DNA of 64,000 bases, taken from positions 37,773 through 101,772 of the forward strand of contig DATBZA010000107.1 of assembly GCA_036513415.1 (NCBI GenBank), written 5' to 3'. Positions 8,222-61,931 of the stretch are shown one piece after another; the stretch's first letter is position 1, and each line of letters opens with the position of its first letter. The notes under the pieces are model-generated. The model saw nothing but the letters and a program-made list of their open reading frames with translations, made no database searches and was not told where the DNA came from. The DNA is from Myxococcales bacterium (lineage in GTDB: Bacteria; Myxococcota; Myxococcia; Myxococcales; 40CM-4-68-19). Position numbers and translations under genes: made by a program.

Positions 8222-8315
8222 GCGCGCAGCCCAAGAGGAGTGTCTGGAGGCTGGCGGGCCGCTCACGTCCCTCACGAGCCCCGAGCATAGCCGCCGGCCT
8301 CGCACCACGCCATTC

Positions 8316-8331
8316 CGGCGCGCTCCTTGCA
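8316..8331 (+). promoter_or_regulatory. candidate sigma-54-type element CGGCGC-N5-TTGCA abutting start codon
   Basis: GG-N10-GC with a perfect -12 TTGCA. The C of GC is 14 nt from ATG 8344, with no SD in between. Confidence 0.3.
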
Positions 8332-8343
8332 CTCCTCGTCGTG

Positions 8344-8811
8344 ATGACGACACGTCCTCCGGTGCCTCCGTTCACTCAGGAATCAGCCGCTCAGAAAGTA
8401 CGATTGGCCGAAGATGGCTGGAACTCCCGCGATCCGGAGAAGGTCGCCCTGGCCTATACGCCGGATTCGCGCTGGAGGAACCGCTCGGAGTTCGTCAACG
8501 GAAGGCAGGAGATCGTCGCCTTTCTTGCGCGCAAGTGGAACAAAGAGCTGGACTATCGGCTGATCAAGGAGCTTTGGGTCTTCGGGGGACCTCGGATCGC
8601 AGTCCGCTTCGCGTATGAGTGGCACGATGACTCTGGGAATTGGTACCGCTCGTACGGCAATGAGAACTGGGAATTCGACGAGAATGGCCTGATGCGGTTG
8701 CGGCTGGCCTGCATCAATGATCTTCCCATCAGGGAATCGGACCGGAAGTATCGCTGGACCCTGGGCCGACGTCCGGATGGTCATCCGGGATTGACCGACC
8801 TTGGTCTCTAG
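8344..8811 (+). CDS. DUF1348 family (NTF2-like) protein
   Basis: The sequence [32 protein letters not shown]...WEFDENGLM matches my recollection of DUF1348. Start moved to ATG 8344. Confidence 0.75.
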
Positions 8812-9494: not shown

Positions 9495-9627
9495 GTCACG
9501 CTTGCCGCCCCTGTTTCAGTGGTCGTGCCGGGGCGACGTTGCACAGAGATCCGACACCCCATGTCGATGAATCGATCAAAGAAGGCGCTCTCTTCGAATT
9601 CTGAAGGCTTTGTGACCGCCGGGTCGT

Positions 9628-9643
9628 TGGTCCGGATCCTGCT
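9628..9643 (+). promoter_or_regulatory. candidate sigma-54-type element TGGTCC-N5-CTGCT abutting start codon
   Basis: Shares TGGTCCGGAT with the element at 3374. The C of GC is 18 nt from ATG 9660, with no SD. Confidence 0.3.
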
Positions 9644-9659
9644 TCCCTGCTGCCCTGAA

Positions 9660-10262
9660 ATGATGATCTCGCCCAAGCAGCTCGACGACTCCGTTGCGTC
9701 CGACCAGTCGCTGGCTGATCGCGCCCGGAGAGGGAGCGGGGCGGCGTTCGCCGCGCTCGCAACGCGGCACCGCGAGGCGGTGTACGCGATCACGAGGAAC
9801 ATGTGCGCGACCTCGGGCGACGCTGAAGAGGCGCTCAAGCAGGCTTTCCTTTCCGCCTGGCGCGAGCTCGCGTCCTTTCCAGCGGGTGCGAAGTTCACGA
9901 CGTGGCTGTATCGGATCGCCATGAAGACCGCATTGGCGGAGCGGCAGCGCGATCCCCGCAGGGCTTCCGGCTCGCTGGAGCCATTCCTGCCTGGTTTCGA
10001 CCGCGCAGGCCGTCTCGTCTCCAGCAACGGTCGCCGGCCCGAGCTTGACGGCAGCTCTTCGGAGCCGATTCAAATCACGGGACTGCTCCGCGAGGCGCTC
10101 GAATGCATCGACGAACAGACTCGCGGTGCATTCGTCCTGCGCGACCTTCTCCTGCTGCCGGTCGACGAGGTGGCCGCCATCCTTCAAACCTCGCCGCAGG
10201 CGGTCCGTCGAGACGCGCATCGGGCTCGCCTGATGCTCTGTGGATTCCTCAATCAGCTTTGA
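9660..10262 (+). CDS. ECF-type RNA polymerase sigma factor
   Basis: Region 2 (AFLSAWRELASFPAGAKFTTWLYRIAMKTAL) and region 4 HTH (LPVDEVAAILQTSPQAVRRDAHRAR). No adjacent anti-sigma gene is recognisable. Confidence 0.8.
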   Translation: MMISPKQLDDSVASDQSLADRARRGSGAAFAALATRHREAVYAITRNMCATSGDAEEALKQAFLSAWRELASFPAGAKFTTWLYRIAMKTALAERQRDPRRASGSLEPFLPGFDRAGRLVSSNGRRPELDGSSSEPIQITGLLREALECIDEQTRGAFVLRDLLLLPVDEVAAILQTSPQAVRRDAHRARLMLCGFLNQL

Positions 10263-10328: not shown

Positions 10329-11699
10329 TCACTCTGGGATGATCGGGCCGTACTTCTTCAACCGCTCGATGAGCGATCCGCGGCTCAGGCCCAGGCGTCG
10401 CGCGGCCTCCGACTGGTTTCCGCCGACCGCGGTCATCGTCCGGCCGATCAGGCTGCGCTCCACCGCCTCGACGTGGTCGCGGAGACTGAGCTTCCGGTCG
10501 AGCTGTCCCCCCATACCCTCTCCGCCCGTCTGAACGGTGTCCCGGGGGAGCCAGCTCTCGTCCGCCGAGAGCACCTCGGTGTCGGAGACAATCACCCACC
10601 GTTCGATCACGTTCTGTAGCTCTCGAATGTTGCCCGGCCAGGAGTACGTCCGCAGCATCTCCAGGGTCTTCTCATCCACAGCGCGCACCTTCTTCTCCGC
10701 TCGACCCGCATGGAGGCGAATGAAGTGCTCGACCAGCAGGGGGATGTCCTCTCGTCGCTCCCGCAGGGGCGGGACCTCGATGGGAAACACGTTGAGCCGG
10801 TAGAACAGGTCGCTGCGAAAGGTGCCGGCGGCAATCGCAGCCTGCAAGTCACGATTGGTGGCCGCGATCACCCGCACGTCGACCCGGATCGGTTGATTCC
10901 CGCCCACCCGCTCGAATTCGCGCTCTTGCAGGACCCGCAAGAGAGCAATCTGGGTCTCCGCGGGAAGGTCGCCGACCTCGTCCAGGAAGATCGTTCCTCC
11001 TTCCGCCAGCTCGAAACGGCCCCGGCGCTGCTGCAGCGCTCCCGTGAACGCTCCCTTCTCGTGACCGAACAACTCGGAGGCGATCAGCGAGGGCTGGATG
11101 GCGGCACAATTCACGCTGACGAGTGGTCGCGAGGACCGCTGCGACCGGCTGTGGATTGCATGCGCTACCAGCTCCTTCCCCGTCCCCGTCTCTCCCAGGA
11201 TCAGCACCGTCGATTCCGTCGGCGCGACGCTCGCCACCCGATTCAGAACCGTCTTCAACGAGGCGCTGGTGCCCACGACGCTCTCTGGAGCGTGCTTCGC
11301 AGCTTTCTTCCCCCTGTTCGGGACCTGGTAGCGGACGATCGCTTGCCGGATGGCCGCCAGCAGGGCCTCATCGTCGAAAGGCTTGGTGAAGAACTCGAAG
11401 GCTCCGGACTTCATGGCTCGCACGGACATGGGGATGTCCCCGTGACCGGTGAGAAAGATGATGGGAATCTGGAGATCGGCCTTGGCGAGCTCCTGTTGCA
11501 GATCCAGCCCGCTCAGCCCCGGCAGTCTCACATCCAGCACCAGACAGCTCGGCACCTCGTTCCGCGGCCTGACCAGGAAGTCTTGCGCCGACTTGAACGT
11601 CTCCACTCTTAGCCCCGCCGACCGGATCAGACTTGCCACGGACTCGCGCACCGCCACATCGTCATCCACGACGTAGACGGGAGGATATGTCTCGCTCAT
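10329..11699 (-). CDS. sigma-54-dependent response regulator (FixJ-type REC + AAA+ + Fis HTH)
   Basis: REC (VYVVDDD...[13 protein letters not shown]...KPF). Walker A GETGTGKE. GAFTGA loop. ESELFGHEKGAF. R-finger region. C-terminal HTH NQSEAARRLGLSRGSL. SD GAGGAAAGGTGG before ATG 11699. A GTG at 11771 would overlap the upstream stop (GTGA). Confidence 0.9.
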   Translation of the reverse strand: MSETYPPVYVVDDDVAVRESVASLIRSAGLRVETFKSAQDFLVRPRNEVPSCLVLDVRLPGLSGLDLQQELAKADLQIPIIFLTGHGDIPMSVRAMKSGAFEFFTKPFDDEALLAAIRQAIVRYQVPNRGKKAAKHAPESVVGTSASLKTVLNRVASVAPTESTVLILGETGTGKELVAHAIHSRSQRSSRPLVSVNCAAIQPSLIASELFGHEKGAFTGALQQRRGRFELAEGGTIFLDEVGDLPAETQIALLRVLQEREFERVGGNQPIRVDVRVIAATNRDLQAAIAAGTFRSDLFYRLNVFPIEVPPLRERREDIPLLVEHFIRLHAGRAEKKVRAVDEKTLEMLRTYSWPGNIRELQNVIERWVIVSDTEVLSADESWLPRDTVQTGGEGMGGQLDRKLSLRDHVEAVERSLIGRTMTAVGGNQSEAARRLGLSRGSLIERLKKYGPIIPE

Positions 11700-11767
11700 G
11701 GGCCACCTTTCCTCGACCGGAGCGCGGCGATCACCGAGCTCTACCCACTCTCCGATCATCCATCGCA

Positions 11768-12145
11768 TCACATCATTTTCGGACTCAGGGCTGCCTGGAC
11801 CGCACTCAGCAGCGCTTCCTCGCTGAATGGTTTGAGCAAGAAATCCACCGCGCCCCCTCTCAGAGCTCGCGACCGCAGCTGTTCATCTCCATGTGCGGTG
11901 ATGAAGATGACCGGCATCTGCGGATGGCTGGCCACGAGACGGCTCTGCAACTCGAACCCGCTCATTCCGGGCATGCGCACGTCGAGGATCAAGCAGTCTG
12001 TCTCGCGCAGACGATCCGAGCTCAGGAACTCCTCGGCCGAGGCAAACACCACCACTCCGAAGCTGACGGACCTGAGCAAGCCCCCGACGGAGTCGCGCAC
12101 GGAGTTGTCGTCATCGACGATCGAAATGAGAGGAGTGTTCGCCAT
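11768..12145 (-). CDS. single-domain response regulator (FixJ-type REC only)
   Basis: ISIVDDDNSVRDS...LILDVRMPGMSGFEL...KPF. Paralogous to the REC domains of the two neighbouring regulators. Start is ATG 12145 or GTG 12160. Confidence 0.8.
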   Translation of the reverse strand: MANTPLISIVDDDNSVRDSVGGLLRSVSFGVVVFASAEEFLSSDRLRETDCLILDVRMPGMSGFELQSRLVASHPQMPVIFITAHGDEQLRSRALRGGAVDFLLKPFSEEALLSAVQAALSPKMM

Positions 12146-23904: not shown

Positions 23905-24132
23905 TTCCCAGCTACGACTGCAGCAGCAGCTTCACGGGCAAACGAACCCATACTGCTTCGGCTTTCCGGCTTGGCATCAAAACCCCCTTGCTGCTGTTCC
24001 GCAAAAGATGCGGGCGGGTGCCTTGGCGATTCGCCCGCATTCCGGGTATCTGCTTTGGCAGGGTCCTTCTACCCTTGGGCGGCGTCCGCCTTTCTGAGAG
24101 GCGGGAGAGCTAAAATCAGCTTGGAGCACGGT

Positions 24133-30321
<6,189 letters not shown>

Positions 30322-30342
30322 ATGGTCCATGAGTGCAGCCGC

Positions 30343-30358
30343 TGGCATGACCGTTGCT
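30343..30358 (+). promoter_or_regulatory. candidate sigma-54 promoter TGGCAT-N5-TTGCT
   Basis: Near-consensus -24/-12 match located 22 nt after the stop of the giant EBP gene. My rough base-composition estimate gives about 0.06 chance occurrences of this pattern in the whole window. The C of GC is 18 nt from ATG 30375. Confidence 0.55.
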
Positions 30359-30374
30359 CTCTGACCGAGCCGTC

Positions 30375-30656
30375 ATGTTCAAGATCCGGAGGTCCTCTGC
30401 AGGGCGATGGGTCTTCGTGAGTGGTCGGATCGACGGAGAGGCAGTGTCCGAGTTGCAGCGCCTGTTGGGCCGGGAATCGGCAGGGAGCGGGCTGATTCTG
30501 GATCTCAAGGGAGTTCGACTCGTGGATGCGGAGGCAGTAGAGTTCTTCGCGCGTTGCGAGGACGCGGGGATCAAACTTCGGAGTTGCCCTGCGTACGTCC
30601 GCGAGTGGATCGCCAGCAGTCGGCGTCAAGCCGCACTGATCCCAGCACGGGAATGA
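30375..30656 (+). CDS. small STAS-like (anti-sigma-antagonist fold) protein, hypothetical
   Basis: 93 aa. The pattern ...LILDLKGVRLVDAEAVEFF... resembles the STAS core but lacks the conserved phosphorylatable Ser. No SD. Confidence 0.5.
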   Translation: MFKIRRSSAGRWVFVSGRIDGEAVSELQRLLGRESAGSGLILDLKGVRLVDAEAVEFFARCEDAGIKLRSCPAYVREWIASSRRQAALIPARE

Positions 30657-30711
30657 CGTCCAGCTTCTCCAGCGCCGCCAACCCAGCGCTGGCCGCTGCG
30701 CTCTCGTGTTC

Positions 30712-30758
30712 CGAATTACGAATTTCGGTGATCTCAAAGCACGACATCTCGTAATTCG
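30712..30758. other. perfect 10-nt inverted repeat CGAATTACGA / TCGTAATTCG with 27-nt spacer
   Basis: Arms at 30712-30721 and 30749-30758, in a locally AT-rich spacer between the STAS-like gene and the propeller kinase gene. Confidence 0.7.
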
Positions 30759-30813
30759 AGGGCCCGTGCTGCTCCTGGAGGGCTGGCCCGGTTCATGAAT
30801 AGGCTGCAGTTGG

Positions 30814-33800
30814 ATGGCCGTGGCCACGAACGGGACAGGGCCGGCGCAGGTTGCTGGCGAGCGTGCGATTGCCTCCGGCGACGTGAGCTCGCTCGCCGAA
30901 GTCCGAAGGCTGCGGCGTATTGTCGGTGTGAGCAGGCCGGGATTGCCCCCGAGCGTAACAAAGCGGGCCCGCGTGGCTTGCCTCATCATCCCGTTCGCGC
31001 TGGCGGCACCCGTGTATGCGCTCCGGCCGCAGAAATCGGACACGCAGTTCACTCACACAGGCTGGTCCGCGAAAGATGGCATCCCGGGTCCGGTCCGGGC
31101 AATCGCTCAGACGAGGGACGGGTACTTGTGGCTCGCGACGGAAGCCGGCCTGTACCGGTTCGACGGCCTTCGCTTCGCCCCATACGAGCCCAGCCGCAGC
31201 TCGCATTCCCACGGGCCCGCCGTCCTGTCGCTCCTTGCTGCGCAGGACGGGAGCCTGTGGATGGGATTCGGCTCCGGCGGAATCGGCCGGCTTCGCGACG
31301 GCCAGGTCACCCACTTCCCCCCTGGCGAGGGCGTTCCCGAGGGTGGAATCCTCTCCATCGTGGAAGACGGGGCTGGTTCGATCTGGGCCGCGGGACAGTA
31401 CGGCTTTGCCAGCTTCGACAACGGCAAGTGGCGCCGGGTCGGAGCGGAGACGGGCTATGCCGCCCCAGGAGCGCAAGCGCTATTGGTTGATCATGCGGGC
31501 ACGCTCTGGGTCGCAACGGACGGATTGAATTTCGGATTGAGCAAGCACCCGATTCGCGCGAACACGATCCTGACTCTTGCCAAGAACGCGACGCATTTCT
31601 CCCCGACGGGCGAGGCCGTCGGCATGATCTGGAGCATGGCCGAGGCGCCCGACGGGACTGTCTGGGTCGCGGACACGACCTTCAAGAAGGCGCGACGGAT
31701 GGACGGCCGCGGAGCGGCTTCGCCCGCGGTCGCCGTCGATGGAGAGCCGTTGTGCCTGACCTTCGGCAGGGATGGGAGCCTATGGGTTGGCCTGATCGCA
31801 GGTGGTGTGCGCCGCGTGCGGGACATCGGCCGGGACGCGCCGCTCGATCGGTTTCGCGTCGAGGACCACCTTTCGGGCAGCCTCGTGTATGCGGCGCTGA
31901 AGGATCGGGAAGGCAACCTCTGGTTCGGGACGGGCGGCGGCTTGGATCGGTTTCGCGAGAACAAGATGACTGCCTTCTCAGAGAGCGAAGGCCTGGGTCC
32001 GGATCAGAAGATCGCGCTGACTTCCACACCGGACGGGAGCGTGTGGCTGGTCAGCTATGCCCAGGACAAGGTGCGCCGCTTCCGGGATGGAGCGTTCGTC
32101 AGCTCGACGCTCGCGCCTTACAGCCCATCCGACTCGAGCCGGATCCTGGCCCTGTACGCGAATCCAGCCGGTCAGGTCTGGGTCGGAGGAAGCTTCAAGC
32201 TGGCCAGGGAGAGTCACGGGACGTTCTCGTACCTCGACGTCCCGGGCGTGATTGGTCCGTCGTCCGTCGAAGCGGTCGCCGAGGACAAGGCGGGCGCCCT
32301 GTGGGTGACATTGACGAGCCCCGGCGGGACCAGGCGAATCCTGCGGCGTCGGCGCGGCAAGTGGACAGAGCTACCCGCGCAAACGGTTCTCCCGCCGTAC
32401 CGCTGTCGGGTGCTGCATGCGGACGCTCTGGGCCGCATGTGGCTGGGCTTCGAGAACGGCGAAGTGGTCGTCTTCGAAGGCGATGCGTCCCGCCTGTACT
32501 CGGCGAAGGACGGCCTGCGTAGCGGTCGGGTTCTCGTCATCGCGGAGGACCGCGAGGGCCACGTCTGGATCGGGGGCGAGAGCGGTTTGAGCCGATTTGG
32601 TCAAGATCGGTTCGTTACGCTGACGCAGGACAACGGCCTTCCGGGGAGCTCCGTCTCGGGAATCCTGGAGGACGACGACGGCAACTTGTGGCTCGCTGGG
32701 GCGCTCGGGATCCTTCGGGTGAAGCCGCAGGAGTTGGACAAGGCGCTCGCGTCTGCGTCTTATCGGGTCGAGGGGGTGACCTTCGACGCCACGGACGGAT
32801 TGCACGGTCTTCCGCGACAACGGGAGCCGTTTCCGACCGCCACACGGGCGGCCGACGGGCGGCTCTGGTTCGCCACCACCGGCGGCGTCGCCGTGATCGA
32901 TCCGCGCCGGTGGCCTCGCAACGCGATGGCACCGCCGGTCAAGATCGAGAGAGCCATCGCGGACGATCGCAATCTGGAGTTGTCCAGCGGACTGCGCCTG
33001 CCGCCAAACACGAAGAATCTCGAGCTCCAGTATGCGGCCCTGAGCCTGACGGCCCCGGAACGCGTCCGCTTCCGTTACAAGCTCGAGGGCTACGACGCCG
33101 ACTGGCGGGGGCCGGTCAGCGCCCGGAGCGCGACGTATACCAACCTCCCGCCCGGAGACTACCGGTTTCATGTCGCCGCCTGCAACAACGACGGCGTCTG
33201 GAACGAGGAGGGAGCGGCGCTCGAGTTCACGATCGTTCCGGCCTTTCGCCAGACGCGAGCATTCCTTCTTCTCTGCGCCGCGGCCGCCGGGTGCCTCGTC
33301 TGGGCGGGCTATCGATGGCGGATCCGGCAGGTGAGGTCCCGGCTGCAGCTTCAATTCCGGGAACGGCTGGAGGAGCGAACGCGCATCGCGCAGGAGCTGC
33401 ACGACACGCTGCTCCAGGGCTTCCTCAGCGCGTCGATGCAGCTCCATGTTGCGGTGAACCAAGTGCCGGCGGAAACGGCGGACAAGCGGCGCTTGAATCG
33501 GGTGCTCGAGCTGATGAGGAGCGTGATCGAAGAAGGACGCAACGCCGTCAAAGGGTTGCGTTCTTCGCCGGGCTGCCATGACGATCTCGAAGAGGCGTTC
33601 TCTCGAGTCCGTGAGGAATTGGACGCGAAGGAGGACATCGACTTCTTCGTGATCGGTGAAGGCCAGGCGCGCCCGCTGCACGCCATCATCCGGGACGAAG
33701 TCTACCGGATCGGCCGCGAAGCGGTGGTCAACGCGTTTCAACATTCGGGAGCGAACCGGATCGAGGTCGAGGTCGAGTTCGCCGCGAAGGGGTTGCGGGT

Positions 33801-34074
33801 CACGGTGCGCGATGATGGCCGCGGGATCGATCCGCAGCTTCTCGAGTCCGGACGGGAGGGACACTGGGGACTCGCCGGCATGCGGGAACGCGCGAAGAGG
33901 ATTGGCGCGCGACTCAAGCTCTGGAGCCGGGCACTTGGCGGCACGGAAGTCGAGCTGTCCGTTCCGAGCGGCATTGCTTTTCGGGCGCAGTACCGCCGGT
34001 GGCCGTGGGACTGGCTGGCGCGGCTGTATCCGGGAAGGGCTGGGGATCTCGACGGCAGGAAGCGAGCGGGCTGA
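30814..34074 (+). CDS. sensor histidine kinase with periplasmic two-component-regulator beta-propeller + Y_Y_Y domain, HisKA_3 type
   Basis: Many repeats of the form (D/R)G.LW(V/I)(G/A)T..GL..F. Then PRFRYKLEGYDADW (Y_Y_Y), a TM segment, H-box RIAQELHDTLLQ and HATPase (DDGRGI). Start is uncertain; GTG 30928 is an alternative. Confidence 0.85.
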   Translation: MAVATNGTGPAQVAGERAIASGDVSSLAEVRRLRRIVGVSRPGLPPSVTKRARVACLIIPFALAAPVYALRPQKSDTQFTHTGWSAKDGIPGPVRAIAQTRDGYLWLATEAGLYRFDGLRFAPYEPSRSSHSHGPAVLSLLAAQDGSLWMGFGSGGIGRLRDGQVTHFPPGEGVPEGGILSIVEDGAGSIWAAGQYGFASFDNGKWRRVGAETGYAAPGAQALLVDHAGTLWVATDGLNFGLSKHPIRANTILTLAKNATHFSPTGEAVGMIWSMAEAPDGTVWVADTTFKKARRMDGRGAASPAVAVDGEPLCLTFGRDGSLWVGLIAGGVRRVRDIGRDAPLDRFRVEDHLSGSLVYAALKDREGNLWFGTGGGLDRFRENKMTAFSESEGLGPDQKIALTSTPDGSVWLVSYAQDKVRRFRDGAFVSSTLAPYSPSDSSRILALYANPAGQVWVGGSFKLARESHGTFSYLDVPGVIGPSSVEAVAEDKAGALWVTLTSPGGTRRILRRRRGKWTELPAQTVLPPYRCRVLHADALGRMWLGFENGEVVVFEGDASRLYSAKDGLRSGRVLVIAEDREGHVWIGGESGLSRFGQDRFVTLTQDNGLPGSSVSGILEDDDGNLWLAGALGILRVKPQELDKALASASYRVEGVTFDATDGLHGLPRQREPFPTATRAADGRLWFATTGGVAVIDPRRWPRNAMAPPVKIERAIADDRNLELSSGLRLPPNTKNLELQYAALSLTAPERVRFRYKLEGYDADWRGPVSARSATYTNLPPGDYRFHVAACNNDGVWNEEGAALEFTIVPAFRQTRAFLLLCAAAAGCLVWAGYRWRIRQVRSRLQLQFRERLEERTRIAQELHDTLLQGFLSASMQLHVAVNQVPAETADKRRLNRVLELMRSVIEEGRNAVKGLRSSPGCHDDLEEAFSRVREELDAKEDIDFFVIGEGQARPLHAIIRDEVYRIGREAVVNAFQHSGANRIEVEVEFAAKGLRVTVRDDGRGIDPQLLESGREGHWGLAGMRERAKRIGARLKLWSRALGGTEVELSVPSGIAFRAQYRRWPWDWLARLYPGRAGDLDGRKRAG

Positions 34075-34704
34075 ATGGCTGGACACGACCCGATCCGTGT
34101 TCTCTGCGTCGACGACCACCCTGTGCTTCGAGAGGGGATCGCTGCCCTGGTCGAGAGTCAGCGAGACATGAAGCTCGTGGCCGAGGCGGGGAGCGGACGC
34201 CAGGCCCTTCTCAGCTTTCGCGAGCACCGTCCAGACGTCACCCTGATGGATCTGAGGCTTCCCGACATGAGCGGCATCGATACGTTGGCCGCGATCCGCT
34301 CGGCGTTCCCCGATGCGCGCATCATCATGCTGACGACGTTCGAAGGCGACGTCGAGATCCGGCGCGCCCTCGAGGCGGGCGCGCGAGGGTACATGTTGAA
34401 GAGCATGCCTCCGCAGGACTTGATCGACGGGATCCGGCAAGTGCATGCGGGGAAGAAACGCATTCCGCTTGAGGTCGGGTCCCATCTCGCGGAGCACATG
34501 GGCGAGGAGGACCTGACGGCTCGCGAGGTCGAGGTCCTGCAGCAGATCGCCGGCGGGAACCGGAATCAAGACATCGCGAGTCGACTCTTCATCGCTGAAG
34601 AAACGGTCAAGGTCCACGTCAAGCACGTCATGGAGAAGCTCGGAGCAAGCGACCGCACTGAAGCCGTCTCGATCGCGCTCCGGCGCGGGATCATCCAGCT
34701 TTAG
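34075..34704 (+). CDS. NarL/LuxR family response regulator
   Basis: ATG directly follows the kinase stop. REC (VLCVDDHPVLREG...LMDLRLPDMSG) + LuxR HTH (LTAREVEVLQQIAGGNRNQDIASRLFIAEETVKVH). Confidence 0.9.
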   Translation: MAGHDPIRVLCVDDHPVLREGIAALVESQRDMKLVAEAGSGRQALLSFREHRPDVTLMDLRLPDMSGIDTLAAIRSAFPDARIIMLTTFEGDVEIRRALEAGARGYMLKSMPPQDLIDGIRQVHAGKKRIPLEVGSHLAEHMGEEDLTAREVEVLQQIAGGNRNQDIASRLFIAEETVKVHVKHVMEKLGASDRTEAVSIALRRGIIQL

Positions 34705-35432: not shown

Positions 35433-36563
35433 ATGAGCATCATCACGATCCGAGACGGCACGCCGGCATCCAATCTCGAGGTCCCGGTTGCCCTCGCCAA
35501 CCTGGATCTCGGGGACGAGATCGATCACGAGATCAACTTCGGCCGGATCGTCGGCAAAAGCCCTGCGCTGCGGCGCGTGCTCAAGCAGATCGAGACGGTG
35601 AGCGGCACGGTCAGCACGGTCATCCTCGAGGGCGAGACCGGGACCGGCAAGGAACTGTTCGCCCAGGCCATCCATGATCTCAGCGGCCGGCGTTCGGGCC
35701 CGTTCGTGAAGCTGAACTGTTCAGCGATTCCCAGCGGTCTTCTGGAAAGCGAGCTCTTCGGGCACGAGAAGGGAGCGTTCACGAGCGCCTCCGCTCAACG
35801 CGTCGGACGTTTCGAGCTGGCGAATGGCGGAACCATCTTCCTCGACGAAGTCGGCGAGCTCTCGCTCGAGCTGCAGCCGAAGCTCCTCCGGGTGCTTCAG
35901 GAAAGGGAATTCGAGCGTCTGGGCGGCGCGCGCACCCTGCGTACCGACATCCGGGTGATCGCGGCGACGAACCGCGACCTGAGAACGATGGTCGAGCGGG
36001 GGATGTTCCGGTCCGATCTCTTCTACCGTCTGAACGTCTTTCCCGTCCGGGTCCCCGCGCTTCGAGACCGGCCGGAGGACATTCCTCTTCTGGTCCGGTC
36101 CTTCGCCGACGAGTTTTCGCGGCGCATGAACAAATCGTTCGAGGCCATTCCCTGCTCGACCATGAGAGAACTGTGCCGGCACCCCTGGCCGGGCAACATC
36201 CGGGAGCTCCGGAACGTCGTTGAGCGCGCGGTCATCCTCTCGTCCGGTCCGGTCCTCGAAATCGACATCGCCGACATGAACGCTCGCAAATCGCCGATGC
36301 GCAGGGCAGACAGCAGGGTCGAGGCGTTCCCGTTGAGAAGACTTCGCGACGAACTGGATGACGCCCAACGCGATGTGATCCTCGGCGCGCTGAGGCAAGC
36401 GGATGGGCGTGTCGGAGGACCCGATGGTGCCGCAGCAAGGCTTGGTCTGAAGCGTACGACACTCATCGGCCGCATGAAGCGGCTCGGTATCGAGTCTCAC
36501 TCGCGAGATGGAAAGTCTTATGGGACCTCTCAACCAGACCTGTCAAAGACGATCGCTTCTTGA
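35433..36563 (+). CDS. sigma-54 enhancer-binding protein without N-terminal sensor domain (PspF/HrpR-like layout), GAFTSA loop variant
   Basis: Only about 45 aa precede the AAA+ core. Walker A GETGTGKE. ESELFGHEKGAFTSA at 35770-35787 (Ser replaces the second Gly of GAFTGA). HTH AAARLGLKRTTLIGRMKRLG. SD GGAGAG before ATG 35433. Confidence 0.85.
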   Translation: MSIITIRDGTPASNLEVPVALANLDLGDEIDHEINFGRIVGKSPALRRVLKQIETVSGTVSTVILEGETGTGKELFAQAIHDLSGRRSGPFVKLNCSAIPSGLLESELFGHEKGAFTSASAQRVGRFELANGGTIFLDEVGELSLELQPKLLRVLQEREFERLGGARTLRTDIRVIAATNRDLRTMVERGMFRSDLFYRLNVFPVRVPALRDRPEDIPLLVRSFADEFSRRMNKSFEAIPCSTMRELCRHPWPGNIRELRNVVERAVILSSGPVLEIDIADMNARKSPMRRADSRVEAFPLRRLRDELDDAQRDVILGALRQADGRVGGPDGAAARLGLKRTTLIGRMKRLGIESHSRDGKSYGTSQPDLSKTIAS

Positions 36564-44958: not shown

Positions 44959-47055
44959 TTGCAGGACGATGCGAGCAGCAGGGGACGAAGCGCGCCTCTG
45001 GGAGCGACGCCCTGTGACGGCGGCGTCAACTTCAGCGTCTACTCGCGCGGAGCCACCGGCGTGGAGTTGCTGCTCTTCGACCGGGAGAACGATGCACGCG
45101 CGACCCGGGTCATCCCGCTCGACCCCGCGGCGAATCGGACTTACCACTACTGGCACGTCTTCGTGTCGGGCATTCGGCAGGGCCAGATGTACGGGTATCG
45201 CATGCACGGAGCGTGGGACCCCGCGAGCGGGATGCGCTTCGACCCGACCAAGGTGCTCCTCGATCCCTATGGCCGAGGCGTCGTGGTTCCGAAGAGCTAC
45301 AGCCGCGAAGCGGCGTGCGGGGAAACCGACACCGCCGCGTCGGCGATGAGGAGCGTCGTGGCCGACGTTTCCGCGTACGACTGGGAGGGCGATGTCCCGC
45401 TGCAACGGCCGTCGTCGCGGACCATCATCTACGAGATGCACGTGAGAGGGTTCACGTGCCATCCCAGCTCCGGGGTTTCGGAACAAAAGCGGGGGACCTA
45501 CGCCGGCGTGGTCGAGAAGATTCCCTATCTCCAGCAGCTGGGCATCACCGCCGTCGAGTTGCTGCCGGTGTTCCAGTTCGACGCCCAGGATGCTCCGCTC
45601 GGACGGATCAACTACTGGGGATATGCGCCGATCTCGTTCTTTGCGCCGCACCACGCCTACAGCTCCGGTCAGGATCCGCTCGCCCCGATCGACGAGTTCC
45701 GCGACATGGTGAAGGCGCTCCACCGCGCAGGGATCGAGGTCATTCTCGACGTCGTGTTCAACCACACCGCGGAAGGCGACCACCGCGGACCGACGCTGAG
45801 CTTCCGCGGACTGGACAACGCCACATACTACATCCTCGAAGAGGATCACTCACGCTACGCCAATTACAGCGGCACGGGGAATACGCTGAACGCCAATCAT
45901 CCGATCGTGCGCCGGATGATCGTGGACTGCCTCCGGTACTGGGTGGAGACGATGCACGTCGACGGGTTCCGCTTCGACCTCGCGTCGATCCTGGCGCGCG
46001 ATTCGTCGGGCCAGGTGATCCCGAATCCGCCGGTGCTGTGGGACATCGAGTCGGAGCCGGCGCTGGCGGGGACGAAGCTCATCGCTGAAGCATGGGATGC
46101 AGTTGGTCTGTACCAGGTGGGGACCTTCGTCGGGGACAGTTGGAAGGAATGGAACGGACGCTTCCGCGACGACGTCCGCAGCTTCTTCCGCGGCGACGAA
46201 GGCTCCATCGGCGCGTTTGTCGACCGGTTCATCGGCAGCCCGTCGTTGTACGGCCACAAGGAGCGCGAGATCGAGGAAAGCATCAACTTTGTCACGTCTC
46301 ACGATGGCTTCACCCTCAACGATCTCGTCTCCTACGACCGCAAGCACAACGAAGCGAACGGCGAGGACAACCGGGACGGCGCCGACGACAACCGAAGTTG
46401 GAACTGTGGAGTGGAAGGCCCGACGGAAGATCCCGCGGTCGACAAGCTGCGAACGCGACAGGTGAAGAACTTCTTCACCGTGACGATGCTCTCCGGGGGG
46501 ATGCCCATGATGCTCATGGGCGACGAAGTGCGGCGTACGCAGGGCGGCAACAACAACGCCTATTGTCAGGACAACGAGACCAGCTGGTTCGACTGGACCC
46601 TGCTCGCGAAGCGGGCCGACGTGCTCCGGTTCGTGAGCTTGCTCAATGCTCGCCGGGTCTTGCGAGACGTCGAGCACGAGCGGCAGCGGGTAGCCCTGAA
46701 CCAACTGATCCGCCAGGCCGACCTGACCTGGCACGGCGTGAGACTCCACGAACCTGACTGGGGTCACGACTCGCACAGCGTGGCTTTCACGACGAAGTTC
46801 GCGAACGAACCAGGTCTCTTTCACATCATTCTCAATGCGTACTGGGAACCGCTCGAATTCGAGCTGCCGCCGGCCGCCGGCGGCGCCGGACATCCATGGC
46901 ACCGATGGATCGACACCTTTCTCGACTCTCCGCACGATATCGCTGATTGGGAGCGGGCACCCTTGGTTTCCGGCGACAGCTATCGGGCGGAACGCCGGTC
47001 CGTGGTGGTGCTGTTCGCGGGCGTCGAACCGGCTCCTACTGCAACGCCGACGTGA
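44959..47055 (+). CDS. glgX: glycogen debranching enzyme (isoamylase-type)
   Basis: PLGATPCDGGVNFSVYS, YEMHVRGFT, GYAPISFFAP, VILDVVFNHT, DGFRFDLAS, IAEAWD, FVTSHDGFTL. TTG 44959 start is uncertain. Confidence 0.9.
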   Translation: MQDDASSRGRSAPLGATPCDGGVNFSVYSRGATGVELLLFDRENDARATRVIPLDPAANRTYHYWHVFVSGIRQGQMYGYRMHGAWDPASGMRFDPTKVLLDPYGRGVVVPKSYSREAACGETDTAASAMRSVVADVSAYDWEGDVPLQRPSSRTIIYEMHVRGFTCHPSSGVSEQKRGTYAGVVEKIPYLQQLGITAVELLPVFQFDAQDAPLGRINYWGYAPISFFAPHHAYSSGQDPLAPIDEFRDMVKALHRAGIEVILDVVFNHTAEGDHRGPTLSFRGLDNATYYILEEDHSRYANYSGTGNTLNANHPIVRRMIVDCLRYWVETMHVDGFRFDLASILARDSSGQVIPNPPVLWDIESEPALAGTKLIAEAWDAVGLYQVGTFVGDSWKEWNGRFRDDVRSFFRGDEGSIGAFVDRFIGSPSLYGHKEREIEESINFVTSHDGFTLNDLVSYDRKHNEANGEDNRDGADDNRSWNCGVEGPTEDPAVDKLRTRQVKNFFTVTMLSGGMPMMLMGDEVRRTQGGNNNAYCQDNETSWFDWTLLAKRADVLRFVSLLNARRVLRDVEHERQRVALNQLIRQADLTWHGVRLHEPDWGHDSHSVAFTTKFANEPGLFHIILNAYWEPLEFELPPAAGGAGHPWHRWIDTFLDSPHDIADWERAPLVSGDSYRAERRSVVVLFAGVEPAPTATPT

Positions 47056-47085
47056 TGGGGGGCGGCGAGGCGTCATCACGAGATG

Positions 47086-47101
47086 GGGCACATCGCCTGC
47101 T
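47086..47101 (+). promoter_or_regulatory. candidate sigma-54 promoter GGGCAC-N5-CTGCT
   Basis: GGCACATCGCCTGC is almost identical to the core at 5216 (GGCACGTCGCCTGC). Intergenic, about 50-nt leader, GGAGG SD before ATG 47162. Confidence 0.45.
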
Positions 47102-47161
47102 GTGGCAGGCCGCTGCGGCGTTCTGTTAGATTCAGGCTGTGGGGAAGGGGCATGGAGGCAC

Positions 47162-48718
47162 ATGGGCGGTGGCGCCAGAGCGGGAATGGCCACAGCGGTT
47201 CGCGCTGCGGTTCGAGCCATCGCGCCGCAGCGCCTGCTACCGCTGAGGGGTACCCGATCCGCGATTGAGCGGTACGGTGTTGCAGCCGCGGCCGTCGCCG
47301 TTGCACTCGGGGCGGCACTGCTTCTGCAGCGGTCTCGCATCGAGCGCCTGGAATTCCCGATCTTCCTGTTCGAGATCGCGCTGGTCGTCTGGTTCCTCGG
47401 GGTCGGACCTGCGATTCTCGCGGTCGTACTCTCGAGTCTGGCTTTCGACTACTACTTCACGGAGCCCCTTCACAGCTTCTCGGTCAACTCGACCGACCTC
47501 GCGTACTACGTCGTCTTCATCCTGTTCGCGCTCCTGATCACCTGGTTCAGCGCCATCCGGCGCCGCTTCGAGCAACAGCTGCTGCAATCGCGAGACGAGC
47601 TCCGGAAGGAAGTGGCCGTGCGAAGCCAGCAGGCCAGCCTCCTGAACCTGACTCACGACACGATTTTCGTCCGCGACATGAGCGACACAATCACCTACTG
47701 GAATCGAGGAGCCCAGGAGTTGTACGGGTGGACGGCAGAGCAGGCGATGGGGAAGCACAGCCACGAGCTCTTGCAAACGGATTTTCCCATACCGATCGAT
47801 GAAGTTCGCGCGGAATTGCTGCGCACCGGCCGCTGGGAGGGCGAGCTGCAGAAGACGAAGGCCGACGGATCGCGGATCGTAGCGGCAAGCCGATGGTCTC
47901 TGCGGCGAGACGAGCAGGGCCGGCCGCTCGCCATCCTGGAAACGAACAACGACGTGACCGATCGCAAGCGACGGGAAGAGGAAATTCGCAAGCTCAACCA
48001 CGAGCTGGGAAAAAGAAGCGGCGAGCTCGAGGCCAGCAACAAAGAGCTGGAAGCCTTTGCTTATTCCGTCTCACACGACCTGCGTGCGCCACTTCGCCAC
48101 ATGGTCGGGTTTACCGAGCTGCTGCAAAAGCATGCGTCATCGGCTCTGGATGAAAAGAGCAAGCGATACATGACGACGATCCTGGATTCGGCGAAGCGGA
48201 TGGGCAACTTGATCGATGACCTCTTGTCCTTTTCGAGGATCGCACGTACGGAGACGCGAGAGACGACGGTCAGCCTGGAGCAACTGGTCAAGGAAGTCCG
48301 GGCTGAAATGCAGCCGGAGACAGGCGGGCGCAACATCGCTTGGAGGGTCGGCGAGTTGCCCGATCTCTATGGAGATCGCTCGATGCTCAGGCTCGCGCTG
48401 GTCAATCTCATTTCCAATGCCGTCAAGTTCACACGCAAGCGCCCGCAAGCCGAGATCGAAATCGGTTGTCTGGAGAAGAAGAGCGATGGAGTGACGATGT
48501 TCATCAAAGACAACGGAGTTGGTTTCGACATGAAGTACGTCAACAAGCTGTTTGGCGTATTTCAACGGCTTCACCGGCCCGAGGCTTTCGAAGGCACCGG
48601 CATCGGTCTGGCCACCGTGCAACGGATCATCCATCGCCATGGAGGCAGAGTCTGGGCTGAGGCCCTCGTGGATGGAGGCGCAACGTTCTTCATCTCGATT
48701 CCTAGCCGCGGGAGATGA
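47162..48718 (+). CDS. membrane-anchored PAS sensor histidine kinase (phytochrome-type HisKA output)
   Basis: The N-terminal TM module and first PAS are paralogous to the kinase at 5828..8221. H-box FAYSVSHDLRAPLR. HATPase DNGVGFD, GTGIGLATV. Confidence 0.9.
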   Translation: MGGGARAGMATAVRAAVRAIAPQRLLPLRGTRSAIERYGVAAAAVAVALGAALLLQRSRIERLEFPIFLFEIALVVWFLGVGPAILAVVLSSLAFDYYFTEPLHSFSVNSTDLAYYVVFILFALLITWFSAIRRRFEQQLLQSRDELRKEVAVRSQQASLLNLTHDTIFVRDMSDTITYWNRGAQELYGWTAEQAMGKHSHELLQTDFPIPIDEVRAELLRTGRWEGELQKTKADGSRIVAASRWSLRRDEQGRPLAILETNNDVTDRKRREEEIRKLNHELGKRSGELEASNKELEAFAYSVSHDLRAPLRHMVGFTELLQKHASSALDEKSKRYMTTILDSAKRMGNLIDDLLSFSRIARTETRETTVSLEQLVKEVRAEMQPETGGRNIAWRVGELPDLYGDRSMLRLALVNLISNAVKFTRKRPQAEIEIGCLEKKSDGVTMFIKDNGVGFDMKYVNKLFGVFQRLHRPEAFEGTGIGLATVQRIIHRHGGRVWAEALVDGGATFFISIPSRGR

Positions 48719-49182
48719 ACATGCTGGACAACCTGGGACGTATTTTGATGGTTGAAGACGACCCCAAAGACGTCGAGCTCACCCTGACGGCGTTGGAGGA
48801 CTACAACCTCACCAATGAGGTCGTCGTCACTCGTGACGGGGAAGAGGCCCTGGACTATCTCTATTGCCGGGGCAGCTTCAAGATGCGTACGAATGAAAAT
48901 CCTGCGGTCCTGCTGCTTGATCTGAAGTTGCCCAAGATCGACGGACTGGAGGTGCTGCAGCAGATCAAGTCCGATGAGAAATTGAAGATGATTCCCGTCG
49001 TGGTGCTGACCTCGTCTCGCGAAGAAAGGGACATGGTCGCAAGCTACAAGCTGGGCGTGAACGCTTACGTAGTGAAGCCGGTCGATTTTCACGAGTTCGT
49101 CAACGCGATCAAGGAGCTTGGGGTTTTCTGGGCCATCATCAATGAGCCGCCACCTGGGAGCGTAAAGAGGAAGCAAGTGTGA
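48715..49182 (+). CDS. single-domain response regulator (Rcp1-like REC)
   Basis: ILMVEDDPKDVELT...LLLDLKLPKIDGLEVL...KPVDFHEF. ATG overlaps the kinase stop (ATGA). Confidence 0.9.
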   Translation: MNMLDNLGRILMVEDDPKDVELTLTALEDYNLTNEVVVTRDGEEALDYLYCRGSFKMRTNENPAVLLLDLKLPKIDGLEVLQQIKSDEKLKMIPVVVLTSSREERDMVASYKLGVNAYVVKPVDFHEFVNAIKELGVFWAIINEPPPGSVKRKQV

Positions 49183-50672
49183 GGCCCCTTCACATTCTCC
49201 ATCTCGAAGACGATCCGAGTGACTCGGAGCTCGTTCAAGCGCGGCTGGAGGTGGACTGTGTCGCCTGCCACGTAACGCGTGTCGAGACCGAGGTTGATTT
49301 CTGCGCCTCGCTCGACCGAGGTGGCTATGACCTCATCCTTGCGGATTACACGCTTCCCTCGTTCGACGGCCTTTCAGCGTTGAAGATCGCGCTGGAAAAG
49401 CGCCCGGAAATGCCGTTCATCTTCGTTTCTGGAACGCTGGACGAGGAGCTGGCGATCGAAGCGCTCAAGATCGGGGCGACGGACTACGTCTTCAAGACTC
49501 GTCTGTCGAGGCTCCTCCCTTCGGTTCAAAGAGCGCTTCGCGAAGGCGAGGAGAGAGCCGAGCGCAAGCGGGCAGAGGAAGGCCTGCGCCGGAGTGAGGC
49601 TTATCTGGCCGAGGCACAGAGACTCAGCCACACGGGCAGTTTCGGCTGGGACCTTTCCAGCGGCGATATCTATTGGTCACTGGAGACCTTTCGAATATTT
49701 GAGTTCGAGCCGGTGACCAAGCCGACATTGGAGCGAGTGCTGCAACGAACCCACCCGGAAGACAGGTCGACTGTCCGGCAGCTCATCGATTCCGCTTCAG
49801 AGGAGAGAAAGGGGTTTGATTTCGAGCATCGGCTGCTGATGCCGGATGGCGCCGTCAAGTACATCAGAGTGGTCGCTCATCCTTCGACAAGCGGCCCGGC
49901 GTTCGTAGGAGCGGTGACGGACATCACCGAGAGCAAGCGGGCGCAGGAAGCTCTGCGAACGAGCCAGGCAGAGCTCGCTCACGTCACTCGCATCATGACG
50001 ATGGGGGAGTTGGCCGCTTCCATCGCCCACGAAGTCAATCAGCCGCTCTCCGCCATCGTCGCCAGCGGCAGCGCCTGTATTCGCTGGCTCGACGGTCCCG
50101 TCCCCAGTCTTGCGGACGCGCGCGAAGCGGCCCAGCGCATCGTCCGAGACGGGAAGCGAGCGGGCGAGGTGATCGCACGAATCCGCGCACTGACGCGGAA
50201 AGCGACCACCGAAAAGGAACGTCTCGACCTCAACTGCACGATCGAGGAGGTCGTCGCCCTCGTCGGGGGCGAGATCCTGAAGAACCGGGTGGCGCTTCGA
50301 ACGGAGCTTCGAGATCACCTCCCCGCAGTATTGGGCGATCGCATCCAACTGCAGCAACTGGTGCTGAACCTCGTCATGAACGCGATCGAAGCCATGAGCG
50401 CAGTTGCAGACCGGCCTCGGGAGTTGGCCATCACGACCCAGAACGTCGAGACGGATCAGGTGGTCGTGGCGGTGCGAGACTCGGGAGTTGGCCTCGACCC
50501 GAAGAGCAGCGAACGCATCTTCGAAGCTTTCTATACGACCAAGCCGGCAGGCATGGGCATGGGGCTATCGATCAGCCGATCGATTGTCCAGAATCACGGG
50601 GGCCGCCTCTGGGCGGTAGCGAACGACGGCCCCGGCACTACGTTCCAATTCACCGTTCCCAAGTACGAGTAA
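49179..50672 (+). CDS. hybrid REC-PAS histidine kinase
   Basis: GTG overlaps the upstream stop (GTGA). REC (ILHLEDDPSDSEL...ILADYTLPSFDG). PAS (SEAYLAEAQRLSHTGSFGW...). H-box [26 protein letters not shown]. HATPase. Confidence 0.9.
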   Translation: MRPLHILHLEDDPSDSELVQARLEVDCVACHVTRVETEVDFCASLDRGGYDLILADYTLPSFDGLSALKIALEKRPEMPFIFVSGTLDEELAIEALKIGATDYVFKTRLSRLLPSVQRALREGEERAERKRAEEGLRRSEAYLAEAQRLSHTGSFGWDLSSGDIYWSLETFRIFEFEPVTKPTLERVLQRTHPEDRSTVRQLIDSASEERKGFDFEHRLLMPDGAVKYIRVVAHPSTSGPAFVGAVTDITESKRAQEALRTSQAELAHVTRIMTMGELAASIAHEVNQPLSAIVASGSACIRWLDGPVPSLADAREAAQRIVRDGKRAGEVIARIRALTRKATTEKERLDLNCTIEEVVALVGGEILKNRVALRTELRDHLPAVLGDRIQLQQLVLNLVMNAIEAMSAVADRPRELAITTQNVETDQVVVAVRDSGVGLDPKSSERIFEAFYTTKPAGMGMGLSISRSIVQNHGGRLWAVANDGPGTTFQFTVPKYE

Positions 50673-52361: not shown

Positions 52362-52459
52362 TCACGAGAACGCTAGAGTGGTGACCGGTGTCGATGACAT
52401 GGACAGATGTTTCGACATTTGCCGGCGAACGCAACCCTCGATTCCTGGTGATCCTTCGT

Positions 52460-52475
52460 TGGCACGTCCGCTGCA
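52460..52475 (+). promoter_or_regulatory. candidate sigma-54 promoter TGGCACG-N4-CTGCA
   Basis: TGGCACGTCCGCTGCA is nearly identical to TGGCACGTCGCCTGCA at 5215. Intergenic, upstream of the TolC-adaptor-RND operon. Confidence 0.5.
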
Positions 52476-61535: not shown

Positions 61536-61931
61536 ATGAAATACCTGCTGATGATGCACACCCCGTCCGGAGGCCCCTACCAGATCGCCAGCTGGCCGAA
61601 GCAGGACATCAAGGCGCACATCGCGTTCATGGTCAGCTTCGCCAAGAAGCTAGGGGAGTCGGGTGAGCTGGTGTCCGCCGAGGGCCTGGCCGCTCCCGAT
61701 CAGGCCAAGCGGGTGCGCGCCGGAAAGGATGGCAAGCCGATCACGGACGGCGTGTTCCCCGAGTCGAAGGAGTTTCTCGCCGGGTACTGGATCGTGGACG
61801 TCGAGAGCCCCGAGCGCGCCCACCAGATCGCCGCGCAGGCCTCCGCCGCTCCCGGCCCTGGCGGGGCGCCACTCAACATGGCGATCGAGGTGCGGCAAGT
61901 GATGAGCGGGGCGCCGAAAGACTGGCTCTGA
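61536..61931 (+). CDS. YciI/DGPF-family protein
   Basis: MKYLLMMH... N-terminus. GVFPESKEFLAGYWIVDVES motif. GGAAGGA SD. Confidence 0.8.
   Translation: MKYLLMMHTPSGGPYQIASWPKQDIKAHIAFMVSFAKKLGESGELVSAEGLAAPDQAKRVRAGKDGKPITDGVFPESKEFLAGYWIVDVESPERAHQIAAQASAAPGPGGAPLNMAIEVRQVMSGAPKDWL

Follow-up and report, generated by a model that had tools for sequence, protein, structure and literature searches.

In a stretch of 64,000 nucleotides (nt) from a Myxococcales bacterium (NCBI GenBank assembly GCA_036513415.1, contig DATBZA010000107.1, positions 37,773 to 101,772 of the forward strand; the whole stretch is called the window here), a near-consensus sigma-54 element, P54a, stands between the gene of a giant enhancer-binding protein (EBP), EBP1, and a small gene for a STAS-like protein. 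We consider it rather likely that P54a is a functional sigma-54 promoter in a conserved module that is widespread in soil bacteria; its third part, beside EBP1 and the promoter, is the small STAS-fold gene, which opens the regulated unit and is constant in it. The order EBP gene, -24/-12 motif, small STAS-like gene is seen in dozens of independent loci. The components in the window are the following (aa, amino acids):

30343-30358, plus strand: P54a, near-consensus sigma-54 -24/-12 element TGGCATGACCGTTGCT, with GG at 30344-30345 and GC at 30356-30357
23971-30321, plus strand: giant EBP1, 2116 aa from a TTG start, the first ATG lying near 24133
30375-30656, plus strand: STAS-like gene from its ATG to its stop, 93 aa with a conserved core of about 86 aa, motif NCPAY[VI]REWI

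The promoter element and its conservation

The initial annotation, made from the sequence alone, had read TGGCATGACCGTTGCT as a match to TGGCAY-N5-TTGCW. This proved correct, and the match is the sole exact one on both strands of the whole window. Its GG and GC are 10 bp apart, as the sigma-54 consensus TGGCAC-N5-TTGCW requires. The element lies inside the 53-nt gap that separates the EBP1 stop (30321) from the ATG at 30375. It shares the strand of both genes and faces the STAS-like gene; it begins 22 nt 3' of the EBP1 TGA (30319-30321), just as had been described, and ends 16 nt 5' of the STAS-like gene. The open reading frames (ORFs) and a Pfam scan also bore out that the motif precedes a 93-aa STAS-like ORF, which is followed by a beta-propeller kinase and a NarL-type regulator. 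From standard sigma-54 geometry the transcript is predicted to start at about 30368-30370, which would leave a leader of about 5-7 nt before the ATG. An intrinsic terminator, a sigma-70 consensus promoter and an Rfam family were all looked for between 29800 and 31200, and none was found.

The chance expectation for TGGCAY-N5-TTGCW was taken from dinucleotide-preserving shuffles of the window (n=100). The mean was 0.08 matches, near the 0.06 that had been estimated by hand, and 8 of the 100 shuffles gave at least one match. With two mismatches or fewer to the sigma-54 pattern, the window holds 32 matches where 21 are expected. These figures, and the fact that there is one exact match only, speak for a chance resemblance without promoter function. 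Taken by itself, a single match at an expectation of 0.08 is suggestive; it is the comparative evidence that makes the promoter convincing and brings the chance explanation close to exclusion.

TGG-N8-TTGC was found within 100 nt upstream of the start codon of the small gene in 43 of 76 distinct loci, compared with 1.1% of background windows. An unbiased scan for two trimers separated by a gap, applied to 71 non-redundant upstream regions of family members, ranked TGG-N9-TGC first (47/71 versus 4.5% background, P = 1.5e-45) and TGG-N8-TTG second; in sequence terms this is the sigma-54 signature. The next enriched dyads, TTA-N4-TGG (30/71 loci) and TCA-N5-TTA (25/71), together describe an element TCAAnnnnTTA that touches the -24 box. 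The same two dyads mark a conserved TTTTCAAnnnnTTAC-n-AT element that abuts the -24 box, at about -45 to -28 from the predicted start. We take this signal to resemble the core site of IHF, which here would sit unusually near the promoter.

For the closest relatives of the window locus, here called the window clade, we compared 27 close metagenome loci together with the loci L001 and L081-L086. The closest genome record, L001, is labelled as a Planctomycetota metagenome-assembled genome. Throughout this clade P54a is nearly invariant (TGGCA[T/C]G..CGTTGCT) and usually lies 16 nt (14-17) before the ATG, while the stretch from the EBP stop to the promoter is wholly different in sequence and in length, from 35 to 260 nt. 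Judged from this pattern, P54a is under strong purifying selection and its flanks are not. In about 15 distinct sister sequences with differing flanks the motif keeps a near-fixed distance to the start codon; this is hard to reconcile with a chance match, and so is the top rank of the -24/-12 dyad in the unbiased scan. From these comparative data we consider P54a very probably a real sigma-54 promoter and chance a very unlikely origin. The TTTTCAAnnnnTTAC-n-AT element is absent in the window clade.

The motif is also linked to the neighbouring activator gene, as shown by a tblastn search of the related loci with pieces of the window EBP1. Among the 69 loci with enough upstream sequence, 46 have a same-strand EBP gene that ends less than 700 nt upstream of the small gene, at a median gap of about 195 nt. 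The AAA+ domains of these adjacent EBPs are 72-79% identical to that of the window EBP1. Their sensor regions vary, being multi-PAS in some loci and of the kinase-AAA_16-GAF-PAS type found in the window in others. The motif is present in 37 of the 46 loci with an adjacent EBP versus 4 of the 23 without (odds ratio 19.5, Fisher p = 7.8e-7). The earlier proposal that the giant EBP activates P54a thus gains comparative backing from the recurrent layout, from the association of motif and EBP, and from the covariation of palindromes with the EBP helix-turn-helix (HTH) described below. The adjacent EBP1 probably activates P54a, and the two probably form a module.

Enhancer-binding proteins and enhancer-like sites

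By its sequence, the ORF 23971-30321 encodes a bacterial enhancer-binding protein (bEBP), an NtrC-family AAA+ activator. Its domain order is kinase-like, AAA_16 (STAND), a helical region, GAF, two PAS domains, the Sigma54_activat AAA+ domain, AAA_lid_14 and a Fis-type HTH. The Pfam scan gave E 7.8e-72 for Sigma54_activat (PF00158) and a marginal match for HTH_8 (E 2.4e-4, 21.2 bits against a cut-off of 22). The translation contains a Walker A motif (GETGTGKE) and the GAFTGA loop, and the C-terminal HTH reads ...LGMPATTLYSKIKNMKI... In the kinase-like domain (window 24100-24900) only the C-lobe of the Pkinase profile (positions 101-256) is matched, with HKDVKPAH for HRDLKPxN and LTGFS where DFG is expected. 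The domain is probably a pseudokinase that acts as sensor or scaffold, and not an active kinase.

When typical loci of the family are aligned on the -24 box, AT-rich palindromes stand out between about -125 and -75; they have the form TTTCG-NN-AATT-NN-CGAAA and are accompanied by a third half-site. The order is a palindromic upstream activating sequence (UAS), the IHF-like TCAAnnnnTTA and then the -24/-12 element. The variable bases of the palindromes covary with the first residues of the HTH recognition helix:

P-A-S-T-L-E: half-site or palindrome CGCGAATTCGCG
P-R-S-T-L-E: half-site or palindrome CGCCAATTGGCG
P-R-S-T-L-D: half-site or palindrome CGGAAATTTCCG
P-G-S-T-L-D: half-site or palindrome CGTAAATTTACG
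P-[AS]-T-T-L-[YE]: half-site TTACGAA / TCGTAA

This correspondence is most simply read as a sign that the adjacent EBP binds the palindromes. The initial annotation had expected the UAS of P54a inside the 3' coding region of EBP1. This has to be given up: the half-site of the clade is absent from 29900-30340 even when 2 mismatches are allowed, and the sole enhancer-like element is found at 30712-30758, about 340-400 bp downstream of P54a and 3' of the STAS-like gene:

30709-30760, no strand assigned: candidate UAS, AT-rich, half-site TCGTAAT/ATTACGA, with a perfect 10-nt inverted repeat and a third site

Its parts are CGAATTACGA at 30712-30721, the perfect inverted copy TCGTAATTCG at 30749-30758 and a third, related CGAATTTCGG at 30719-30728. 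CGAATTACGA and TCGTAATTCG are the only two exact copies in the window; elsewhere in it, strict regular expressions for the half-site gave only chance matches in coding regions. Within the clade, enhancer-like sites upstream of P54a were seen in L083-85 and L107 only, as (C/T)TACGAA, then TTTACGAT, then TTCGTAA, and these loci have the window-type recognition helix P-A-[ST]-T-L-Y. In the window, L001 and L087-L090 those half-sites sit 3' of the small gene instead, and the repeat is conserved there. On this evidence EBP1 may bind the candidate UAS at 30709-30760.

The region behind the repeat leads to the next genes and contains a second promoter-like element, P54b:

30784-30799, plus strand: P54b-like element TGGCCCGGTTCATGAA, -24 box TGGCCC, correct spacing, GA for GC at -12, 14 nt before the kinase ATG
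30814-34074, plus strand: sensor histidine kinase, Reg_prop beta-propeller/Y_Y_Y/HisKA_3/HATPase_c, 91-94% identical to the L001 orthologue
34075-34704, plus strand: NarL-type response regulator, receiver plus GerE

When a canonical sigma-54 element was sought from the UAS to the beginning of the kinase gene, this GA variant was the only site found; TGGCGAGCGTGCGATTGCC near 30847 is wrongly spaced. All sister loci of the kinase type keep P54b as TGGCCCGGTTCrTGAA, and the spacer between repeat and P54b is variable: it measures about 23 nt in the window but more in the sisters. Those sister loci that are of the Fer2/MoCoBD type carry TTTCGGCAAnTGCCGAA-nn-TTCGGCA and, about 45 nt later, cGGCCCrGCTnrTGCA (GG-N10-GC), 12 nt before the ATG; the P54b-like site is always downstream of the UAS-like palindrome. 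From this comparison P54b is a candidate promoter only. Further sigma-54 sites were noted in the same region of other loci. L081, L091, L096, L101 and L104 have a consensus site TGGCGCCACGCTTGCA about 45-60 nt 3' of the STAS-like stop, where it is followed by a conserved ORF of 76 aa that separates the STAS-like gene from the UAS/Fer2 operon, and L107 carries CGGCACGTCCGTTGCT between the STAS-like gene and its gene for a second EBP, EBP2.

The position of the repeat allows another explanation, in which 30712-30758 is not the enhancer of P54a. It could be an autoregulatory operator of the NarL-type regulator, an enhancer of P54b only or an RNA hairpin between the STAS-like and kinase genes, and P54a would then be silent, weak or used without a DNA-bound enhancer, the STAS-like gene being expressed mainly by read-through. 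The element does lie directly upstream of the kinase/regulator operon, and its TACGAAT is similar to the NarL heptamer, TACYNMT. As RNA the repeat folds to -21.7 kcal/mol (z = -2.27), and only 53 nt, with no terminator among them, separate the EBP stop from the ATG. This explanation nevertheless seems improbable to us. L083-85 and L107 carry the half-sites upstream of P54a with no kinase/regulator pair after them, Fer2-type sisters have an analogous palindrome at the equivalent place without a NarL-type regulator, and P54a, unlike its flanks, appears to be under strong purifying selection. A transcript initiated at P54a in typical loci would also lack the palindromes, since these are found upstream of the promoter there.

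Two further activators are encoded in the window:

35433-36563, plus strand: EBP2, a second EBP without a sensor domain, about 40 aa ahead of the AAA+ domain and a C-terminal HTH
10329-11771, minus strand: third sigma-54 activator, response-regulator (NtrC) type

With three EBPs in the window, P54a could be real and yet be fired by another activator, that is by EBP2, by the NtrC-type EBP or by one encoded elsewhere, and the adjacency of EBP1 would then reflect shared membership in a regulon. In favour of this, roughly half of the family loci have an EBP2 gene co-transcribed right after the STAS-like gene, an arrangement that would allow positive autoregulation, and the lack of an upstream UAS at P54a in the window clade also fits. 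We consider this unlikely, since the motif follows the presence of the upstream EBP1 (the 37/46 versus 4/23 loci given above), the UAS half-sites covary with the EBP1 HTH, and the HTH of the window EBP2 (LGLKRTTLIGRMKRLGI) is of a different type. Moreover, the sigma-54 contact loop of the window EBP2 is GAFTSA and not GAFTGA, which could weaken or alter the contact with sigma-54. EBP2 homologues elsewhere have GAFTGA (26), GAYTGA (8) or GSFTGA (2).

Our preferred reading, in which EBP1 drives P54a, would imply the following mechanism. EBP1 would integrate signals through its kinase-like/STAND/GAF/PAS part, bind half-sites of the TCGTAAT type with its C-terminal HTH and, by ATP hydrolysis, open the complex of the sigma-54 holoenzyme at P54a. 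The transcript would be nearly leaderless and encode the STAS-like protein. No terminator-like site was found between the STAS-like gene and the kinase gene, so that transcription probably runs on into the kinase/regulator pair. The enhancer 3' of the STAS-like gene could serve P54a by looping back and, in addition, the weaker P54b-like site; Reitzer and Magasanik are said to have shown in 1986 that NtrC-type enhancers act from downstream positions and over kilobase distances. As the weakest link, the STAS-like protein would most likely be a protein-binding adaptor that feeds back on sigma-54 signalling, with EBP1, the sensor-less EBP2 or the kinases as its partner.

Several observations weigh against this reading. 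It is unusual for a leader to be as short as the predicted 5-7 nt and to have no Shine-Dalgarno sequence, and the 53-nt gap 3' of the EBP gene, without a terminator, also permits simple read-through from that gene. In the window clade P54a has neither an upstream enhancer nor an IHF-like site, and activation from about 370 bp downstream is uncommon though possible. P54b has GA where the near-invariant GC is expected at -12. The covariation of HTH and half-site is qualitative and partly confounded by common ancestry. A generic UAS hidden Markov model built from 41 aligned UAS zones missed the window element and gave no significant match anywhere in the window; the UAS motif differs too much between EBP paralogues for such a model. 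The window element is assigned by the identity of its half-sites to those of L083, L107 and L042, together with the HTH covariation. A Pfam scan of 34 window ORFs turned up no rpoN; the presence of three EBP genes implies that it lies elsewhere in the genome. The genes 3' of the STAS-like gene vary between loci, and a fusion of an EBP or a kinase to the STAS-like domain is absent among the best 150 representatives of the family.

The STAS-like protein and its family

The reading frame of the small gene is settled by its homologues. By GC content at the codon positions, a 264-aa minus-strand ORF (30258-31052) fits about equally well as the STAS frame, and the +2 frame holds a further ORF at 30407-30754. 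Both translations are of low complexity and rich in R, P and S, and both were rejected as genes: homologues exist only for the STAS-like plus-strand frame, which has 176 of them, mainly of about 88 aa, and the gene is therefore real. The invariant residues of the family are G17, L27, L30, D43, C71, Y74 and W78. C61 and C71 form a near-invariant pair of cysteines, which might, speculatively, hint at redox or metal sensitivity.

When 1.84 billion representatives were searched with a profile, 2821 clusters were obtained at E<=1e-3, and 1315 reached E<=1e-10. Among these, the 150 best representatives are small, stand-alone proteins, the one exception being P0121 (200 aa), in which the STAS-like domain is tandemly duplicated and which is the sole multi-domain form among these matches. 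In a scan of genomes, with one per species, 268 relatives were detected, mostly in metagenome-assembled genomes of Acidobacteriota. The window protein stays below the Pfam thresholds, with E 6.3e-5 for STAS_2 (23.5 bits versus 29.2) and E 2.7e-3 for STAS (17.9 versus 22.6), and some homologues carry precomputed PF13466 matches. Among NCBIfam models, none matching the family was found.

An AlphaFold2 model of the protein (predicted local distance difference test score, pLDDT, 77; predicted template-modelling score, pTM, 0.62) has the order beta-beta-alpha-beta-alpha-beta-alpha. With this model the best Foldseek matches in the PDB are RsbV (6m36), MlaB (6xbd, 6zy2), a Haliangium antagonist (4hyl) and SpoIIAA (1tid, 1h4y), at E 2e-4 to 1e-2 and template-modelling (TM) scores of about 0.6. 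The small protein is thus predicted to have a STAS fold.

The initial annotation had gone further and had called the product a STAS-fold partner-switching protein. The fold is supported by the AlphaFold2 and Foldseek results; switching driven by phosphorylation is not. When the profile was aligned to TM1442 and SpoIIAA, the position of the phospho-serine (SpoIIAA Ser58) was occupied by a consensus alanine, Ala53 in the window protein. Across 199 family sequences the equivalent residue is R in 87, A in 63, Q in 35, S in 1 and T in 0. Furthermore, the Pfam scan of the 34 window ORFs found neither a kinase of the RsbW/SpoIIAB type nor a PP2C phosphatase. With the phosphorylatable serine missing, the STAS-like protein is not a classical partner-switching antagonist.

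It is possible, and we propose it only tentatively, that the STAS-like family (NCPAY[VI]REWI, more than 1300 clusters) is an unrecognised class of dedicated trans-acting modulators of sigma-54 activators. The protein would be made from an EBP-fired promoter and would bind the EBP, EBP2 or a kinase for feedback or relay. The cysteine pair could add a redox input, and in the lineage of the window one enhancer in between would serve two sigma-54 promoters.

The end of the gene differs between close relatives. In L001, L087 and L088 the STAS-like ORF lacks the usual stop and runs through the enhancer-like repeat, giving a tail ...LRISAISxxDIS. The window protein ends differently (AALIPARE), and its gene is separated from the repeat by some extra sequence, about 65 nt long (window 30630-30710). 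The differing tails and the extra sequence suggest that the junction of gene and enhancer is evolving rapidly.

Downstream genes and comparison with known systems

In typical loci the gene after the STAS-like gene begins 20-90 nt behind it and has a ribosome-binding site. It encodes a sensor-less EBP2, with about 45-60 aa before the AAA+ domain, in 36 of 74 loci and a sensor-less HisKA_3 kinase with a NarL-type regulator in 6; the remaining cargo is varied and includes, among others, TolC-like, ClpB-like and small membrane proteins. Loci of the window clade carry, as cargo, the propeller kinase with its regulator, Fer2/MoCoBD, lactonase plus urease, or EBP2. In the window itself the kinase gene, the regulator gene and an ORF for a small membrane protein come before EBP2, whereas its counterpart directly follows the STAS-like gene in roughly half of the loci elsewhere. 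Given this variable cargo, the constant pairing is that of EBP1 with the small protein and not that of the small protein with a particular cargo.

The products of these downstream genes share a feature at their N-termini. Tails of about 45 aa (M-x-[FL]-[ND]-x-L...) are alike in the EBP2s of L010, L014, L025, L027 and L049 and in the kinases of L047, L051 and L052, and three short HisKA_3 kinases retain F-x-G-I (NFAGIVG, SDFEGI, GLAGI), the normal opening of an EBP AAA+ domain. This suggests that output domains were swapped behind a conserved tail. The tail could be a docking site for the STAS-like protein.

Among known systems, PspF-PspA (phage shock) and FleQ-FleN come close in layout and offer functional precedents for the proposed feedback. 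In both, the EBP gene adjoins a sigma-54-dependent gene for a small or medium-sized protein. The sigma-54-dependent genes pspA and fleN encode inhibitors of their own activators; PspA and FleN bind back to the AAA+ domain of their own EBP and tune it. PspF also resembles the sensor-less EBP2 that usually follows the STAS-like gene, as both are without a regulatory domain. The STAS-like protein, however, has no kinship in sequence or fold with PspA, a coiled coil, or FleN, a MinD-type ATPase. In addition, EBP1 differs from PspF and FleQ in its very large sensor region, and binding of the STAS-like protein to an EBP is here a proposal only.

SpoIIAA and RsbV share with the family the predicted fold and the order of secondary-structure elements (Foldseek: RsbV, SpoIIAA, TM1442), and the LDL..V..hD segment is conserved; some family members even bear the Joint Genome Institute (JGI) label 'anti-anti-sigma regulatory factor'. 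In contrast to these antagonists, the STAS-like core is shorter (about 86 aa), scores below the Pfam thresholds and lacks the serine in 198 of 199 sequences. Its gene has no RsbW/SpoIIAB-type kinase or PP2C nearby, its neighbours in related loci being EBPs, HisKA_3 kinases and varied cargo. The family is linked to sigma-54 activators rather than to anti-sigma factors of the sigma-70 family, and it has its own NCPAY[VI]REWI motif and cysteine pair. MlaB offers another parallel, as a small stand-alone STAS protein of about 95 aa without a phospho-switch that serves as an accessory subunit and binds the ATPase MlaF. It matches the model with TM scores of about 0.63-0.66 (6xbd, 6zy2); identity, however, is 16-20%, and neither in the window nor in related loci does the gene adjoin Mla or ABC transporter genes.

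Typical family loci follow the plan of NtrC/NifA-type promoters exactly, with UAS, IHF-like site and TGG-N8-TTGC. The window clade departs from it: the UAS is 3' of the first regulated gene, between two promoter-like sites, and the IHF-like site is missing. The promoter-like sites lie 12-16 nt from the start codons, which implies near-leaderless mRNAs.

Nothing in full-text literature searches described the pairing of a STAS-type protein with a bEBP, or a module of EBP, promoter and STAS-like gene; one study listed there (PMC10621929) mentions an anti-sigma-factor antagonist, RpoN and an EBP and might bear on the module. Each component is of a known kind; new are the conserved triad, the large unannotated family, the apparent code between HTH and half-site and the variant with a downstream enhancer and two promoters. 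In bacteria, sigma-54 systems serve as the model of enhancer-dependent transcription, and Acidobacteriota, whose regulation is to our knowledge almost unstudied, are abundant in soil. Across hundreds of uncultured genomes the module provides an activator, a likely half-site code, a promoter and a constant first target gene. The partners of STAS folds that we know of so far are anti-sigma kinases, transporters and MlaF. If the STAS-like protein does bind EBPs, the fold would gain a new class of partners, the AAA+ sigma-54 activators. With its enhancer placed after the first gene and its two promoter-like sites nearly without leaders, the window variant would be a natural case of position-independent enhancer action in bacteria.

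Beyond the module, the region is very rich in signalling genes. The window also contains genes for PAS histidine kinases at 24-1427, 5828-8353, 46835-48718 and 49179-50672 and for two extracytoplasmic function (ECF)-type sigma factors at 9519-10262 and 61931-63190. Another sigma-54-type site, TGGCACGTCCGCTGCA (52460-52475, plus strand), was found 21 nt before the ATG at 52497 of an operon for outer-membrane-factor/HlyD/AcrB efflux. A UAS-like TTTCGACATTTGCCGGCGAA lies about 30 nt upstream of it (window 52405-52475), and the geometry is that of a short leader, as in P54a.

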